DNA of 64,000 bases, taken from assembly GCA_035509415.1 (NCBI GenBank), contig DATJLQ010000001.1:101-64100 (forward strand), given 5' to 3'. A model generated the notes under the pieces. The model was not told the origin of the DNA, did no database searches, and worked only from the letters and a program-made list of their open reading frames with translations. Position 1 is the stretch's first letter. The number at the start of each line of letters is the position of its first letter. The DNA comes from Alphaproteobacteria bacterium (GTDB lineage Bacteria; Pseudomonadota; Alphaproteobacteria; JACZXZ01). Both the position numbers and the translations under genes were made by a program. Below are positions 2,041 through 62,615 of this stretch, piece after piece.

Positions 2041-3684
<1,644 letters not shown>

Positions 3685-4035: not shown

Positions 4036-4084
4036 GGTCGGACTCCTCCGTGGAATTGGCGCAATGGTGAATTTCGGCGTGTTG

Positions 4085-4111
4085 TTAGCACTCTTGTCGT
4101 TGGAGTGCCAG
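4085..4111 (-). promoter_or_regulatory. CIRCE (HrcA operator) inverted repeat upstream of groES
   Basis: On the coding (minus) strand: CTGGCACTC-N9-GAGTGCTAA versus consensus TTAGCACTC-N9-GAGTGCTAA (2 mismatches). Lies 50-76 nt upstream of the groES start. Confidence 0.8.
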
Positions 4112-4284
4112 GGATTTAGGGAGACCGAAATATCGCTTCAAGGGTAGTAGCGAAAAATCGGCCCTCGCTGGCAGCCCTCTCGGCCGTGGGCTGCTAGAGG
4201 ATTGATAAAGGCCGCAGATTTTATTTTGCAGTTGCGAGATCGAGGCGCAGAATAGTTGCGTCGAGGGGAGCTTGGGAGGCTCGC

Positions 4285-20459: not shown

Positions 20460-21259
20460 GACGCGGCGCCGGGTTGCGCGCCGCTTTCGGCGCCGCGGCG
20501 GCGCTGGCGCTCGTCGCCGGCGCGGGCGCCGCGCGGGCGCAGGTGCGCACCTATTCCTTCCCCGAGACGCGCGTCGAGCAGCCGCGCGAGGAGAACGGCT
20601 GCGAGATCAAGCCCTACACCCAATGCATCAACGCCAATTTGCACGGCGTCGATTACTCGAACGCGAACCTGCAGCAGGCAAGCTTCCAGAACAGCAACCT
20701 GGAGCAAGCCAACCTGACCGGCGCCAACCTCGAGAGCGCCGATTTCCGCGGCGCGGACCTGACCGACGCCAATTTGACGCAGGCCGACCTCACCTTCGCG
20801 AGCTTCCAGGGCGCCAACCTCACCCACGCGAATTTCAACAGCGCCACGCTCGACTCGGCCAATTTCACCGGCGCCACCCTGTTCAAGACCGACTTCCGCT
20901 TCGCCCACATGCTGCGCGCGAAGCTCGCCGACCTCGATCTGCGCCAGACGCTGCTCTCGAACGTGAAGCTCGGCGCCGCCGATCTCGAGCGCGTCCGGCT
21001 CTCCGACGCGGACATCTCGTCGAGCTCGTTCGACCAGTCCGACTTCACGGACGCCGACCTGACGCGCGCCAACGCCAACGGCTCGAGCTTCCAGGGCGCC
21101 AATCTCTCGGGCGTCAAGCTGACCTCGGCCATCCTGACCGGCTGCGACTTCACCGGCGCGATCCTGGCCGGTGCCGATTTGACCAAGGCCAATCTCTCGG
21201 GCGCGACCTGGATCGACGGCCGCGTGTGCGCCGAGCAGTCGATCGGCACCTGCAAATAG
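20456..21259 (+). CDS. Secreted pentapeptide-repeat protein
   Basis: GTG start overlapping the gdhA stop (GTGA). Signal peptide (...ALALVAGAGAARA) followed by >30 consecutive A(D/N)LxX pentapeptide repeats. Confidence 0.7.
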   Translation: MRRGAGLRAAFGAAAALALVAGAGAARAQVRTYSFPETRVEQPREENGCEIKPYTQCINANLHGVDYSNANLQQASFQNSNLEQANLTGANLESADFRGADLTDANLTQADLTFASFQGANLTHANFNSATLDSANFTGATLFKTDFRFAHMLRAKLADLDLRQTLLSNVKLGAADLERVRLSDADISSSSFDQSDFTDADLTRANANGSSFQGANLSGVKLTSAILTGCDFTGAILAGADLTKANLSGATWIDGRVCAEQSIGTCK

Positions 21260-58370: not shown

Positions 58371-59444
58371 ATGCTCGCCTATATCGTCAGGCGCCTGCTG
58401 CTGGTGATACCGACGCTGTTCGGCATCATGCTGGTCAATTTCGTCATCGTGCAAGCGGCGCCGGGCGGCCCGATCGACCAGGTCATCGCCCAGATCCGCG
58501 GCGCGCAGGGCGGTGCTTTGGCACGGATCAGCGGCGGCGGCCAGGGCGAGGCCGGCACGCCGCAGACGCGCGCCGGGCGCGGCATCGATCCCAAGCTCAT
58601 CGCCGATCTGCAGCATCAATTCGGCTTCGACAAGCCGCCGGGCGAACGCTTCCTGCTGATGATGGGCAACTATCTCCGCTTCGATTTCGGCAACAGCTTC
58701 TTCGAGAACGGCACCGTCGCCCAGCTCGTCGCCCAGCGCCTGCCGGTGTCGATCTCGCTCGGCATCTGGACGACGCTGCTGGGCTATCTCATCTCGATTC
58801 CGCTCGGCATCCGCAAGGCGGTGCGCGACGGCTCGAGCTTCGACGTCTGGACCAGCGCCGTGATCATCATCGGCTATGCCATACCGTCGTTCCTCTTCGC
58901 CATCCTGCTGATCGTGGTGTTCGCCGGCGGCAGCTACGTTCAGTGGTTCCCGCTGCGCGGCCTCGTCTCGGATAATTGGGCGAGCCTCGCCTGGCCGCAG
59001 CGCATCCTCGATTACTTCTGGCATCTGGCGCTGCCGGTCACGGCGATGATCATCGGCAGCTTCGCCAACCTCACCATGCTGACCAAGAATTCCTTCCTCG
59101 ACGAGATCAACAAGCAATACGTGGTCACCGCGCGCGCCAAGGGGCTGGGCGCGCGGCGCGTGCTCTACCGCCACGTCTTCCGCAACGCCATGCTGATCAT
59201 CGTCGCCAATTTCCCCGCCGCCTTCGTCAGCGTCCTGTTCACCAGCGCGTTGCTGATCGAGGTGATCTTCTCGCTGAACGGCCTCGGCCTCCTGGGATTC
59301 GAGGCCGTGCTCAACCGCGACTACCCCATCATCTTCGGCACGCTCTACATCTATACGCTGGTCGGCATCGCGCTCAACCTGGTGCGGGACATCACCTACA
59401 TGCTGGTCGATCCCCGCATCGATTTCGCGACGCGCCAGGCATGA
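58371..59444 (+). CDS. yejB: ABC transporter permease (YejB-like)
   Basis: 357 aa, DppB/OppB-type permease. Confidence 0.85.
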
Positions 59445-60514
59445 GCGCCGCCGAGACGATTGGCGCGCGCCGGGCCGACCGCGTGCTGGGCCTGCGCGTG
59501 AGCCCGCTCACGCGCCGGCGCCTCGCCAATTTCCGCGCCAACCGCCGCGGCTTCTGGTCGCTGTGGATTTTTCTCGCGCTCTTCGTCGTGAGCCTCTTCG
59601 CCGAGTTCATTGCCAACGACCGGCCGATCGTCGTCTCCTATGCCGGTCATCTCTATTTCCCGATCTTCGCCAACTATCCCGAGACCACCTTCGGCGGCGA
59701 GTTTCCGACCGAGGCGGATTATCGCGACCCCTACGTCAAAAAGCGCATCGAGGCGAAGGGCTGGATCGTCTGGCCGCCGATCCCGTTCCACTACGATACG
59801 ATCAACTACGCGCTGAAGACGCCGGCGCCCTCGCCGCCCGATTCCGTCGATTGGCTCGGCACCGACGATCAGGGGCGCGATGTGCTGGCGCGGCTCATCT
59901 ACGGCTTCCGCATCTCGACGCTGTTCGGGCTGACACTCACCATCCTGAGCTCGATCATCGGCATCGCCGCCGGCGCCATCCAGGGCTATTACGGCGGCCT
60001 CGTCGACCTCTCCTTCCAGCGCTTCATCGAGCTCTGGTCGAACATCCCGACCCTTTTCCTGCTCATCATCCTGTCGAGCTTCGTCCAGCCGAACTTCTGG
60101 TGGCTCCTCGGCATCATGCTCGCCCTCTCCTGGATGCAGCTCGTCGATCTCGTGCGCGCCGAGTTCCTGCGCGCGCGGAACTTCGACTATGTCCGGGCGG
60201 CGCGCGCGCTCGGCGTGCGCAATCCCGTGATCATCGTCCGCCATGTCCTGCCCAACGCCATGGTCTCGACGCTGACCTTCATGCCGTTCATCCTGAACGG
60301 CTCCATCACCACCCTCACCTCGCTCGACTTTCTCGGTTTCGGGCTGCCGCCGGGCTCGCCGTCGCTCGGCGAATTGCTGCTGCAAGGCAAGAACAACATC
60401 ACCGCCCCCTGGCTCGGCCTCACCGGCTTCTTCGTCCTCGCCCTGATGCTGAGCCTCCTTACTTTTATCGGCGAAGCCGTTCGCGATGCGTTCGATCCGA
60501 GGAAGGTAAGATAA
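59441..60514 (+). CDS. yejE: ABC transporter permease (YejE-like)
   Basis: Internal ATG, ATGA overlap with yejB. DppC/OppC-type permease. Confidence 0.85.
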
Positions 60515-60517
60515 GGG

Positions 60518-60554
60518 AGTTGTCAGTTGTCAGTTCTCAGCTATCAGTCGTCAG
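60518..60554 (+). repeat. Left array of 5 tandem heptamers (TTGTCAG-like), inverted relative to the right array
   Basis: TTGTCAG TTGTCAG TTCTCAG CTATCAG TCGTCAG, immediately after the yejE stop. Confidence 0.6.
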
Positions 60555-60567
60555 ACTGGAGCCGGCC

Positions 60568-60933
60568 ATGCAGAACTTTCGGGATCTCAGAGTTTGGCGC
60601 AAGGCACATGACGTGGCGCTTTCCGTCTACAAAATGTCCGACGGCTTCCCGTCCGCTGAACGTTATGGCATCACCAGCCAAATGCGGCGCGCCGCTTTCT
60701 CGGTGCCATCGAATATCGCAGAAGGTTGTGGCAGATCGAGCGGTGCCGACTTTGCCCGATTTCTCGACATCGCCTTCGGGTCGGCCAGCGAGCTCGAATA
60801 CCTGCTCCTCCTCGCCGTCGACCTGGGCATTCTCGAATCTGCGACATATGACGCTATGCTCGCCGAGCTGCAGGAGGTCAAGCGCATGCTGACCGCGCTG
60901 ATTGGCCGCGTGAGGTCAGGCACTGAGAACTGA
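60568..60933 (+). CDS. Four-helix-bundle protein (23S rRNA intervening-sequence / IVS protein family)
   Basis: 121 aa MQNFRDLRVWRKAHDVALSVYKMSDGFPSAERYGITSQMRRAAFSVPSNIAEGCGR..., the hallmark of the PF05635/TIGR02436 family. Nested between yejE and yejF. Confidence 0.8.
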   Translation: MQNFRDLRVWRKAHDVALSVYKMSDGFPSAERYGITSQMRRAAFSVPSNIAEGCGRSSGADFARFLDIAFGSASELEYLLLLAVDLGILESATYDAMLAELQEVKRMLTALIGRVRSGTEN

Positions 60934-60978
60934 GAACTGACGACTGAGAACTGACAACTCACAACTGAGAACTGACAA
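60923..60978 (+). repeat. Right array of 8 tandem heptamers (CTGAVAA), reverse complement of the left array
   Basis: CTGAGAA CTGAGAA CTGACGA CTGAGAA CTGACAA CTCACAA CTGAGAA CTGACAA. Overlaps the last 4 codons of the IVS gene and ends 11 nt before the yejF ATG. Confidence 0.6.
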
Positions 60979-60989
60979 CCAACCCCGCC

Positions 60990-62615
60990 ATGCCCCTCCT
61001 CTCCGTCCGCAATCTCCACGTCACCTTTGCCGTTCCCGGCGGCGCGGTCGAGGCGGTGAAAGGGGTTTCGTTCGATCTCGACAAGGGCGGCACGCTGGCG
61101 CTGGTCGGTGAATCCGGCTCGGGCAAGTCGGTCACCGCGCTCTCGGTTCTGCAGCTCCTGCCCTATCCCATGGCGCGTCACGCGGCGGGCAGCAGCATCG
61201 TTTTCGACGGCGCCGAGCTGGTCGGCGCGCCCGAATCGCAGCTGCGCGACATTCGCGGCAACCGCATCGCGATGGTGTTCCAGGAGCCGATGACCTCGCT
61301 GAACCCGCTCCATACCATCGAAAAACAAATCGCCGAAACGCTTTATCTGCACAAGCACATGGCGCCCAGCGCGGCGCGCGCCCGGGTACTCGAGCTGCTG
61401 CGGCTGGTCGGGCTGTCCGAGGCCGAGAAGCGGCTCGGCGCCTATCCGCACCAGCTCTCCGGCGGGCAGCGCCAGCGCGTGATGATCGCCATGGCGCTCG
61501 CCAACGAGCCCGACATCCTCATCGCCGACGAGCCGACGACGGCGCTCGACGTCACCATCCAGGCCCAGATCCTGAAGCTGCTGAAGGAGCTGCAGGCGCG
61601 CTTCGGCATGGCGCTGCTGCTCATCACCCACGATCTCGGCGTCGTCCGCAAGATGGCCGACACGGTGCTGGTGATGACCAAGGGCGAGGTCGTCGAGGCG
61701 GGTCCGGTCGGCGATGTGTTCGCCCGGCCGCAGCATGCCTATACGCGTCATCTGCTGGCGGCCGAGCCCAAGGGCGCGCCGCCGCCGGCTGATCCCGCGG
61801 CGCCGGTGCTCGTCGCCGCCGACGGCCTCAAAGTGTGGTTCCCGATCCGCAGCGGCGTGCTCCGCCGCGTCACCGACCATGTCAAGGCGGTGGACGGCGT
61901 CGGCTTCGAGCTGCGCCAGGGCGAGACGCTCGGCGTCGTCGGCGAGAGCGGCTCGGGCAAGACGACGCTCGGCCTGGCCCTGCTTCGGCTCATCGCCAGC
62001 GAAGGCGCGATCTCCTTCGACGGCAAGCGGCTCGACGACCTCTCCGAGGGCCGCATGCGGCCGCTCCGCCGCGCGCTGCAGATCGTCTTCCAGGACCCCT
62101 TCTCCAGCCTTTCGCCGCGTCTCTCGGTGGCGCAGATCGTCGAGGAAGGGCTCAAGGTGCATCGCATCGGACGAAACGCGCAGGAGCGCCGCGCCATCAT
62201 CGACCAGGCGCTCGTCGAGGTCGGGCTCGATCCCGACTCCGCCGAGCGCTACCCGCATGAATTCTCGGGCGGGCAGCGCCAGCGTGTCGCCATTGCCCGC
62301 GCCACGGTGCTGAAGCCGCGCTTCGTCGTGCTGGACGAGCCGACCTCGGCGCTCGACATGTCGGTGCAGGCGCAAGTGGTCGAGCTGCTGCGCGAGCTGC
62401 AGCGGCGCCACGGCCTCTCCTATCTCTTCATCAGCCATGATTTGCGCGTGGTGCGCGCGCTCGCGCATCAGGTGATGGTGATGAAGGACGGCAAGATCGT
62501 CGAGGCCGGCCCGGCGCAGGAGCTGTTCCAGCGGCCGCGCCATCCCTATACGCGCGCGCTGATGGCCGCGGCCTTCGAACTCGAGGTGGTGGAGGGCGCC
62601 GCGACGACGCAGTAG
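60990..62615 (+). CDS. yejF: ABC transporter ATP-binding protein with duplicated ATPase domains (YejF-like)
   Basis: 541 aa with two Walker A motifs (GESGSGKS twice) and two LSGGQRQR signatures. Confidence 0.9.

Follow-up and report, generated by a model that had tools for sequence, protein, structure and literature searches.

Intervening sequences (IVSs) that carry an open reading frame (ORF) within 23S rRNA genes are the closest described counterparts of the element considered here, a 475-bp insert between the yejE and yejF genes in a 64,000-nt stretch of alphaproteobacterial DNA (contig DATJLQ010000001.1; hereafter, the window). The insert consists of five tandem heptamers, a 121-aa gene of the 23S rRNA intervening-sequence protein family (S23p, PF05635; the IVS-protein gene), and eight tandem heptamers that are the reverse complement of the first array. 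In the Coxiella burnetii IVS, two or three tandem heptamers (GACAGAT) lie just upstream of the S23p ORF, the number of heptamers varies between strains, and a 28-bp terminal stem, made up of four heptamers, is cleaved by RNase III at the start of the first repeat (PMC4990558). The Coxiella ORF was judged to be decaying, and the same study cited an old proposal that it encodes a mobility factor (PMC4990558). The window insert resembles the ORF-bearing 23S IVSs of Leptospira and Coxiella in its PF05635 ORF of ~120 aa, its terminal inverted repeats, which are predicted to form a long stem, and its sporadic presence among relatives. Unlike these, it resides between genes of an ABC-transporter operon, outside the 23S rRNA helices (helix 9, 25 or 45) that define ribosomal IVSs. 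Its arrays are longer than those of Coxiella and unequal (5 vs 8 units), and its ORF, in contrast to the decaying Coxiella ORF, is clearly under purifying selection. An initial annotation of the window had likened the insert to a ribosomal IVS in topology, and the Coxiella element indeed combines the same ingredients, namely heptamers beside an S23p ORF and a terminal stem (PMC4990558).

Comparative analysis showed that, at exactly this junction, some close relatives have acquired the cassette, some have lost it or retain a gene-less remnant, and others carry a wholly different cassette in its place; it also showed that the two arms stay complementary even as the repeat unit changes from locus to locus. 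These findings are best explained by a class of cassettes in which an IVS-protein gene is bracketed by two inverted heptamer arrays and wedged between host genes, and of which the classical ORF-bearing 23S rRNA IVSs are probably a special case. We consider it reasonably probable that the insert is one exchangeable, IVS-type cassette of this widespread class, co-transcribed with the operon, with arms that form a probable RNase III-substrate duplex.

Heptamer arrays have also been described apart from IVS proteins. MacGregor (2015) reported 169 TAACTGA arrays in one Beggiatoaceae genome, mostly in forward orientation and stopping a few nucleotides short of a start codon that generally lacks a Shine-Dalgarno motif, with stop codons in all three frames; the repeats occur across Beggiatoaceae, Cyanobacteria, and Bacteroidetes, with a distribution that was left unexplained (PMC4679880). 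The window arrays are similar: their tandem 7-nt units share a CTGA core, they lie between genes and just ahead of a start codon lacking a Shine-Dalgarno motif, they can provide stops in three frames, and their distribution across phyla is patchy. The right-array unit, read as SAACTGA, matches TAACTGA at 6 of 7 positions, and 11 nt separate the array, itself half of an inverted pair, from the yejF ATG. However, the TAACTGA repeats were described as direct only, with a single inverted case, and were tied to no gene family, whereas the window arrays form an inverted pair around a specific gene and move with it. Cyanobacterial short tandemly repeated repetitive (STRR) heptamers, which we take to be akin to the TAACTGA repeats, are further examples of unexplained intergenic heptamer arrays.

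In Geobacter metallireducens, eight pairs of five MTYCTGA heptamers between operon genes were proposed to be putative regulator sites (PMC2700814). The members of a pair lie on opposite strands, between genes such as proB-proA and moaA-mosC, and resemble the gene-less array pairs and the remnant in locus L092 described below. They enclose no gene and were read as IHF/HU or regulator sites, with no connection drawn to IVS proteins or mobility. Correia/NEMIS and ERIC-type miniature inverted-repeat transposable elements (MITEs) are likewise small inverted-repeat insertions in operons, and they form hairpins in the transcript that serve as targets of RNase III or RNase E and alter the expression of flanking genes; these elements have terminal repeats of unique sequence without heptamer arrays, contain no ORF, and generate a defined target duplication. 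The insert does not match a MITE or transposon-like element, as no target duplication is visible at its junctions, no near-identical copies at unrelated sites were found in the loci compared, and the 64-kb window holds one copy. Nor does it match an integron gene cassette, with two arrays in place of one attC and yej genes as neighbours. The encoded protein shares a homologous four-helix-bundle fold with Avd of diversity-generating retroelements (bAvd, PDB 4DWL), but is not basic, and Avd models score far below their cut-offs.

A literature link between heptamer repeats and the four-helix-bundle/S23/TIGR02436 family was not found in our incomplete coverage of the literature, in which heptamers beside the ORF were described only in the Coxiella paper. 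The gene family, the ribosomal IVSs, and isolated heptamer arrays are already known. What appears to be new is the array-gene-array architecture shared across the family, its typical position between genes that encode proteins, the way in which the two arms co-vary, and the yejE-yejF allelic series with its whole-cassette replacement.

The yejE-yejF junction in relatives

Among related Stellaceae, the junction was found in four states: empty, holding a gene-less remnant, occupied with varying heptamer copy number, and holding a different cassette. An identical protein was found in four metagenome contigs, with the same context and nearly identical arrays. Orthologues at the same junction in Stellaceae metagenome-assembled genomes (MAGs) are 95% (L005), 77% (L006/7), and 76% (L008-11) identical to the window protein, and are flanked by arrays of the same type with 10/5, 4/4, and 4/5 left/right units, respectively; across the occupied sites in L005, L006, L008, L095, L229, and L231, copy number ranges from 4 to 10 heptamers on the left and from 4 to 5 on the right. 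More distant relatives with the gene at this junction are L095, L229, L231, and L079. In L094, where YejE is 87% identical, the site is canonically empty, and the yejE stop and yejF start overlap in the sequence TGATG. In L092 and L093 (YejE 90% identical), the two genes are separated by a 58-nt gene-less spacer (4075-4132; TTTTCAGTTGTCAG ... CTGAGAG), which comprises two clean left-type units (TTTTCAG TTGTCAG) and one right-type unit (CTGAGAG), and which is either what a deletion has left behind or a miniature derivative without the gene.

These empty, remnant, occupied, and replaced junctions agree with the suggestion in the initial annotation that the insert is a small mobile cassette. The annotation had set this suggestion against two other outcomes, a gene carried by all relatives without repeats, and a lack of other arrays or IVS genes elsewhere combined with transcripts that read through unprocessed; instead, relatives keep the repeats, and both arrays and IVS-protein genes are abundant in other genomes.

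Evidence for replacement came from L225-L227 and L228, in which yejE and yejF are 94-96% identical to the window at the nucleotide level, whereas the cassette gene is just 64-66% identical (62-64% at the amino acid level) and the repeat unit is AGCTGTC/GCTGACR rather than AGTTGTC/ACTGAVA. Identity in 40-nt windows stays at 0.88-1.00 as far as the yejE stop, falls there to 0.1-0.85 (mostly 0.35-0.75) across the gap to yejF, and climbs back to 0.95-1.00 no more than ~20 nt from the yejF start. The drop is confined to exactly the intergenic interval; therefore, the gene and its arrays behave as one replaceable unit, with edges that are the array edges. The opposite decoupling was seen in Poribacteria, where comparison of the loci L059 and L073 revealed orthologous flanks that are 84-86% identical around an IVS-protein gene (3001-3351) that is 96.4% identical, while the arrays do not align; the gene is either younger, or more constrained, than its surroundings. 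The paralogous loci L031, L055, and L069, at unrelated sites, share the gene alone (81-83%).

Several individual junctions showed further peculiarities. In L225 (5556-5680), as well as in L226 and L227, the left end is doubled, such that an array and the first 21 nt of the ORF precede an array and the full ORF. The doubling yields an ORF of 142 aa whose residues 8-23 come from translated array sequence, and looks like an abortive or nested insertion, or like recombination at the conserved 5' end of the ORF. In L095 (4130-4462), a 7-nt tandem duplication (CTTCTTG CTTCTTG) close to the 3' end shifts the reading frame of the ORF, leaving 110 aa, which could reflect a pseudogene or an assembly error. 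In L229 (4340-4380), the called yejF start codon lies inside the right array (ACTGATGACTGA), and an array can therefore supply an ATG as well as stop codons. In L079 (3001-3357), a MAG labelled Rhizobiaceae, the gene lies between yejE and yejF homologues (YejE E=1e-185); either the yej site also receives insertions outside Stellaceae, or the bin carries the wrong label.

Inverted arrays across phyla and the predicted pairing of the arms

Homologues were collected by an alignment scan with one genome per species, which gave at least 594 confirmed loci. The architecture was analysed in the best 80 of these, with proteins 50-62% identical to the window protein; they represent the closest relatives of the query and not an unbiased sample of PF05635. 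They belong to Acidobacteriota, Planctomycetota, Chloroflexota, Bacteroidota, Poribacteria, Cyanobacteriota, Proteobacteria, and one MAG labelled Bathyarchaeia. The density of period-7 arrays within 150 nt of the gene was 3.17 per kb, compared with 0.077 per kb in the remaining flanks, an enrichment of ~40-fold with 51 of the 80 loci positive, and arrays of period 5, 6, 8 or 9 were essentially absent from the 80 loci. Membership of the cassette class was defined by period-7 arrays within 150 nt on both sides of the gene, inverted with respect to each other and with matching units, and the window cassette belongs to this class. The most common form has NNNTCAG upstream and CTGANNN downstream. 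Alternative units (TAAGCCG, GCAATCG, CCAGCCG, and AGTAAGC) were also found, with the right unit complementing the left in each locus. Within loci, the left unit matched the reverse complement of the right unit at 5.69 of 7 positions, compared with 4.57 +/- 0.11 for permuted pairings (maximum 5.0 in 2000 permutations). The right array begins ahead of the stop codon in many loci. Copies in contigs classed as viral have the same architecture, yet other units.

The initial annotation had described the insert as an IVS topology transplanted into an mRNA. That picture of a one-off event did not hold, as tight placement between protein-coding genes is usual for the subfamily: median gaps to the neighbours are 76 and 48 nt, arrays included. 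The gene is co-oriented with both neighbours in 39 of 61 cases, compared with 45 of 91 control triplets, with neighbours called by a simple longest-ORF heuristic.

The arms of the window cassette are 86% complementary over 37 nt, and pairing is possible in several registers. The predicted free energy (dG) of the inter-arm duplex is -59 kcal/mol, compared with -28 +/- 4 kcal/mol for shuffled arms, with none of 300 shuffles reaching the native value, which supports the earlier proposal that the inverted arrays bracketing the gene can pair. Values of -49 to -69 kcal/mol were obtained for four orthologues, whereas their shuffled arms gave -15 to -30 kcal/mol and never reached the native values. 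The minimum free energy fold of the whole insert also pairs the arrays (z=-3.84). The predicted pairing has the geometry of an RNase III substrate that would loop out the ORF and its ribosome-binding site.

Arrays were also found apart from the gene. The idea that they are exclusive to the IVS-protein gene was dropped, since most TCAG arrays in the metagenome sample lack an adjacent copy. Gene-less inverted pairs with a gap of 0-130 nt made up 28 of the 37 inverted pairs in the metagenome sample, and such hairpins often share contigs with IVS-protein cassettes. Individual examples are L056 (5136-5182), L070 (419-501), L086 (4808-4971), L164 (1019-1131), and L098 (3364-3431). Inverted arrays around small ORFs of other kinds were seen in L102 (419-976) and L128 (1692-2171). 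One of these ORFs encodes a DUF2007 protein (E=4e-8, supported by Pfam), and the other encodes 72 aa with a HicB/UPF0150-like match below the Pfam cut-off, suggesting that heptamer arrays may carry cargo other than IVS-protein genes. Some contigs in the sample are probably eukaryotic satellites. One 6.6-kb contig (L117, Ga0163179_10008697) consists almost entirely of dozens of short heptamer arrays with many different units, and may be of eukaryotic origin.

Anatomy of the insert and its protein

The insert fills the gap between the TAA stop of yejE (60512-60514) and the yejF ATG; its parts are listed in Table 1. The anatomy given in the initial annotation, with five heptamers, a 121-aa gene, and eight inverted heptamers in the yejE-yejF gap, proved correct in every detail.

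Table 1. Features of the insert and the adjoining yej genes, in window positions
Feature	Positions	Strand	Evidence
yejE-type ABC permease gene, upstream host gene	59441..60514	+	PF00528 E=6.5e-27; translation start MSAAETIG
Purine-rich junction GGGAG, left cassette edge	60515..60519	+	read from sequence
Left array, five tandem NNNTCAG heptamers	60520..60554	+	Tandem Repeats Finder, period 7, 5.3 copies, 80% matches
13-nt spacer with the cassette gene's own ribosome-binding site, GGAG at 60558-60561	60555..60567	+	sequence
121-aa IVS-protein-family gene	60568..60933	+	PF05635 and TIGR02436 matches
Right array, eight tandem CTGAVAA heptamers, reverse complement of left array	60923..60978	+	Tandem Repeats Finder, period 7, 8.3 copies
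C-rich 11-nt stretch from right array to yejF ATG, without Shine-Dalgarno motif	60979..60989	+	sequence
yejF-type double ABC ATPase gene, downstream host gene	60990..62615	+	two ABC_tran domains E=4.6e-60, and oligo_HPY

The left-array units are, in order, TTGTCAG, TTGTCAG, TTCTCAG, CTATCAG, and TCGTCAG, and those of the right array are CTGAGAA (twice), CTGACGA, CTGAGAA, CTGACAA, the deviant CTCACAA, CTGAGAA, and CTGACAA. The repeat spans called by Tandem Repeats Finder are 60518-60554 and 60922-60979. In the predicted duplex, the first three bases of the GGGAG junction pair with the C-rich stretch past the right array and the last two with the right array itself; its counterpart in other cassettes at the yej site is GAAGA, GAGAG or AGAAAA. 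A GGAG-type motif occupies the same position upstream of the cassette gene in L005, L006, L225, L228, and L231, and is weak in L008. The TGA stop of the ORF (60931-60933) falls within the second heptamer of the right array, a detail that the initial annotation does not give; as a 7-nt period is out of step with the codon, this array offers TGA in each of the three reading frames. The C-rich stretch measures 4 to 12 nt in orthologous loci, where a Shine-Dalgarno motif is also absent.

The operon neighbours comprise a family-5 solute-binding protein gene (SBP_bac_5), two BPD_transp_1 permease genes, and the double ABC_tran ATPase gene; the yejE start overlaps the yejB end by 4 nt, and homologues of the yejE-matching permease are annotated by JGI as permeases of the microcin C (Yej) transport system. 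A scan of 60300-61200 detected no promoter-like or terminator-like site, and the insert is therefore presumably co-transcribed with yejABEF. Neither a second IVS-protein gene nor a further heptamer array was found in the 64-kb window, where the other period-7 rows of Tandem Repeats Finder were only short runs of C and G. Rfam searches gave just two chance-level, sub-threshold matches to the insert (E<=10) and, at gathering scores, no family and no rRNA across the window, and no tRNA genes were found there. A repeat with a 30-nt period and three copies occurs at 20757-20846.

The 121-aa protein matches PF05635 with E=2.4e-39 (134.3 bits vs a cut-off of 33.8; 105 of 106 model positions covered) and TIGR02436 ("four helix bundle protein") with E=1.6e-38 (131.2 bits vs a cut-off of 24). 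Its nearest solved relative is Xanthomonas XCC0516 (PDB 2gsc, E=5.7e-23 over residues 7-116), followed by PDB 2rld (E=1.6e-5), and these matches predict a four-helix-bundle fold related to that of solved PF05635 members. Both structures were deposited with five chains. The predicted pI is 5.8, acidic to neutral. Among occupied yej-site cassettes, the ratio of nonsynonymous to synonymous substitution rates (dN/dS) of the ORF is 0.07-0.19, as low as that of yejE and yejF, and the protein is therefore functional and kept by purifying selection. The composition of the cassette gene is atypical for the host: GC content at third codon positions is 0.705, against a range of 0.89-0.91 for the yej genes, and the overall GC content of the arrays is 45%, that of the window 67.5%. 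The protein carries no recombinase, nuclease or transposase signature, matching just PF05635 and, weakly, Avd, and it matched none of the PADLOC defence models. As an Avd homologue, it could serve as the element's own nucleic-acid-binding factor.

Possible mechanism, rival readings, and implications

In the transcript of the operon, the arms would pair into a duplex of ~22-37 bp, looping out the ORF and its own ribosome-binding site. By analogy with the heptamer stem of the Coxiella IVS, RNase III would cut this duplex, and cleavage would release a stem-capped monocistronic cassette mRNA, separating yejABE from yejF. yejF has presumably lost the TGATG coupling of the empty site, and starts 11 nt past the array without a Shine-Dalgarno motif, such that the processed or unpaired sequence of the array would determine its expression.

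Several observations weigh against an exchangeable cassette that is processed at the RNA level. Selection on the sense transcript is expected to leave more G-U than A-C mismatches between the arms, but a wobble test of 45 loci gave no RNA-specific signal (29 G-U vs 32 A-C, with a further 78 mismatches of neither type); complementarity may arise or be maintained through processes acting on DNA, or each pair of a multi-register stem may be under selection too weak to see. Cleavage by RNase III in this organism is an analogy. At the threshold used, 29 of the 80 homologous genes have no clear array, and a search of metagenomes for runs of five TCAG-core heptamers turned up an IVS-protein gene within 200 nt of only 2 of 132 arrays. 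The excess of co-orientation over control triplets is modest. As for exchange, the replacement could result from homologous recombination in the flanks between strains that carry old cassette lineages. No near-identical copies at unrelated sites were found among 81 copies, the best cross-locus pairs being orthologous and paralogues reaching 83% at most; no recombinase or transposase was seen; and no target-site duplication was seen at the junctions, where empty and occupied sequences are too diverged to read one. Active transposition is thus not demonstrated.

Some of these points suit a reading in which the arms act mainly at the DNA level, as recognition or recombination structures (hairpins or cruciforms, comparable to integron attC or MITE ends), with the protein as recognition or mobility factor and the RNA duplex as a by-product. 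This reading is compatible with the cassette described above, and does not exclude it. The breakpoints of cassette replacement at the array edges, the lack of a G-U over A-C bias, the composition foreign to the host, and the doubled left end in L225 are all consistent with it, as are the common gene-less inverted pairs (for example, L056, L070, and L086), which look like non-autonomous derivatives, and the 50-62% protein identity across very distant phyla, including the MAG labelled archaeal. It is nevertheless rather unlikely, given a protein without a recombinase, nuclease or transposase signature, the lack of visible target-site duplications and of recent multi-site copies in the sample, and the otherwise vertical inheritance of the yej-site cassette over long periods. 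A more far-reaching proposal, which we put forward tentatively and regard as possible but doubtful, is that the IVS-protein gene and its inverted arrays make up an autonomous mobile element of a so far unrecognised kind, whose Avd-like protein, by recognising the hairpin or duplex of the arrays, would steer precise insertion or exchange, both between the stop and start codons of neighbouring genes and into rRNA helices. Under this joint proposal, the gene-less hairpins, the TAACTGA arrays, the Geobacter "class 3 sites", and possibly the cyanobacterial STRRs would be its non-autonomous derivatives, and the ribosomal IVSs would be copies that landed in rRNA.

The arrays might alternatively be cis-acting repeats of the TAACTGA type that control translation or bind a regulator, offering three-frame stops and a loading site (S1, Csp, or CsrA-type) for a yejF without a Shine-Dalgarno motif, with the arm complementarity being secondary. 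The TAACTGA arrays before starts of this kind in MacGregor's study (PMC4679880) and the paired MTYCTGA arrays annotated as putative global-regulator sites in G. metallireducens (PMC2700814) offer precedents, and the 6/7 unit match, the position of the array end relative to the yejF ATG, the absence of a Shine-Dalgarno motif in every orthologue, and the yejF ATG called within the array in L229 point the same way. We nonetheless find this account distinctly unlikely, since the left array is reversed relative to the gene that follows it, the arms co-vary even for units that contain neither CTGA nor a stop codon (TAAGCCG, GCAATCG, and CCAGCCG), and the arrays travel with the gene upon cassette replacement. 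The presence of the gene at this site across a broad clade, down to YejE of ~80% identity, and the purifying selection on the ORF could suggest an ordinary accessory gene, fixed in the yej operon long ago, with spacers that are merely slippage-prone microsatellites. That view is very improbable, being contradicted by empty and remnant junctions in relatives, by the same array-gene-array unit in unrelated operons of many phyla, by arms that are inverted and co-vary, by the swap of the cassette between flanks of ~95% identity, and by a composition atypical for the host. Finally, an Avd accessory gene, or a remnant, of a diversity-generating retroelement is scarcely credible. Similarity to Avd models was detected (DivGenRetAVD, NF033474, E=4.3e-6; PF22296, E=0.001; PHROG 3206, E=3.4e-6), but at 27 bits against a cut-off of 80 for NF033474 and 20 against 40 for PF22296. 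The neighbours are yejE and yejF, the protein has a pI of 5.8, and no reverse-transcriptase family was found among the genes called ~10 kb upstream and 4 kb downstream of the copy in L001, where template and variable repeats were not searched; on the scores, the neighbours, and the lack of a listed reverse transcriptase near that copy, this reading was rejected.

The exchangeable, co-transcribed cassette thus stays the preferred explanation, and it bears on two long-standing problems. The origin of ORF-bearing rRNA IVSs and the function of the S23p/four-helix-bundle proteins have been open questions since the early 1990s, while intergenic heptamer arrays, such as the TAACTGA repeats and the Geobacter "global regulator sites", have been reported repeatedly without explanation. 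The yej locus and its relatives unite the IVS, S23p, and heptamer-array observations as one array-gene-array architecture, which spans many bacterial phyla, one MAG labelled archaeal, and contigs classed as viral, and which behaves as a discrete replaceable unit. The Stellaceae yejE-yejF junction provides a natural allelic series, comprising an empty site, a remnant, varied array lengths, and two cassette types on flanks of ~95% identity. This series makes it possible to test whether RNase III cuts the arms, how the operon tolerates or uses the insertion, and what the protein binds. If the protein is a mobility factor, the cassettes would represent a new class of mobile element; if it is not, they would still constitute a widespread post-transcriptional module that splits operons.

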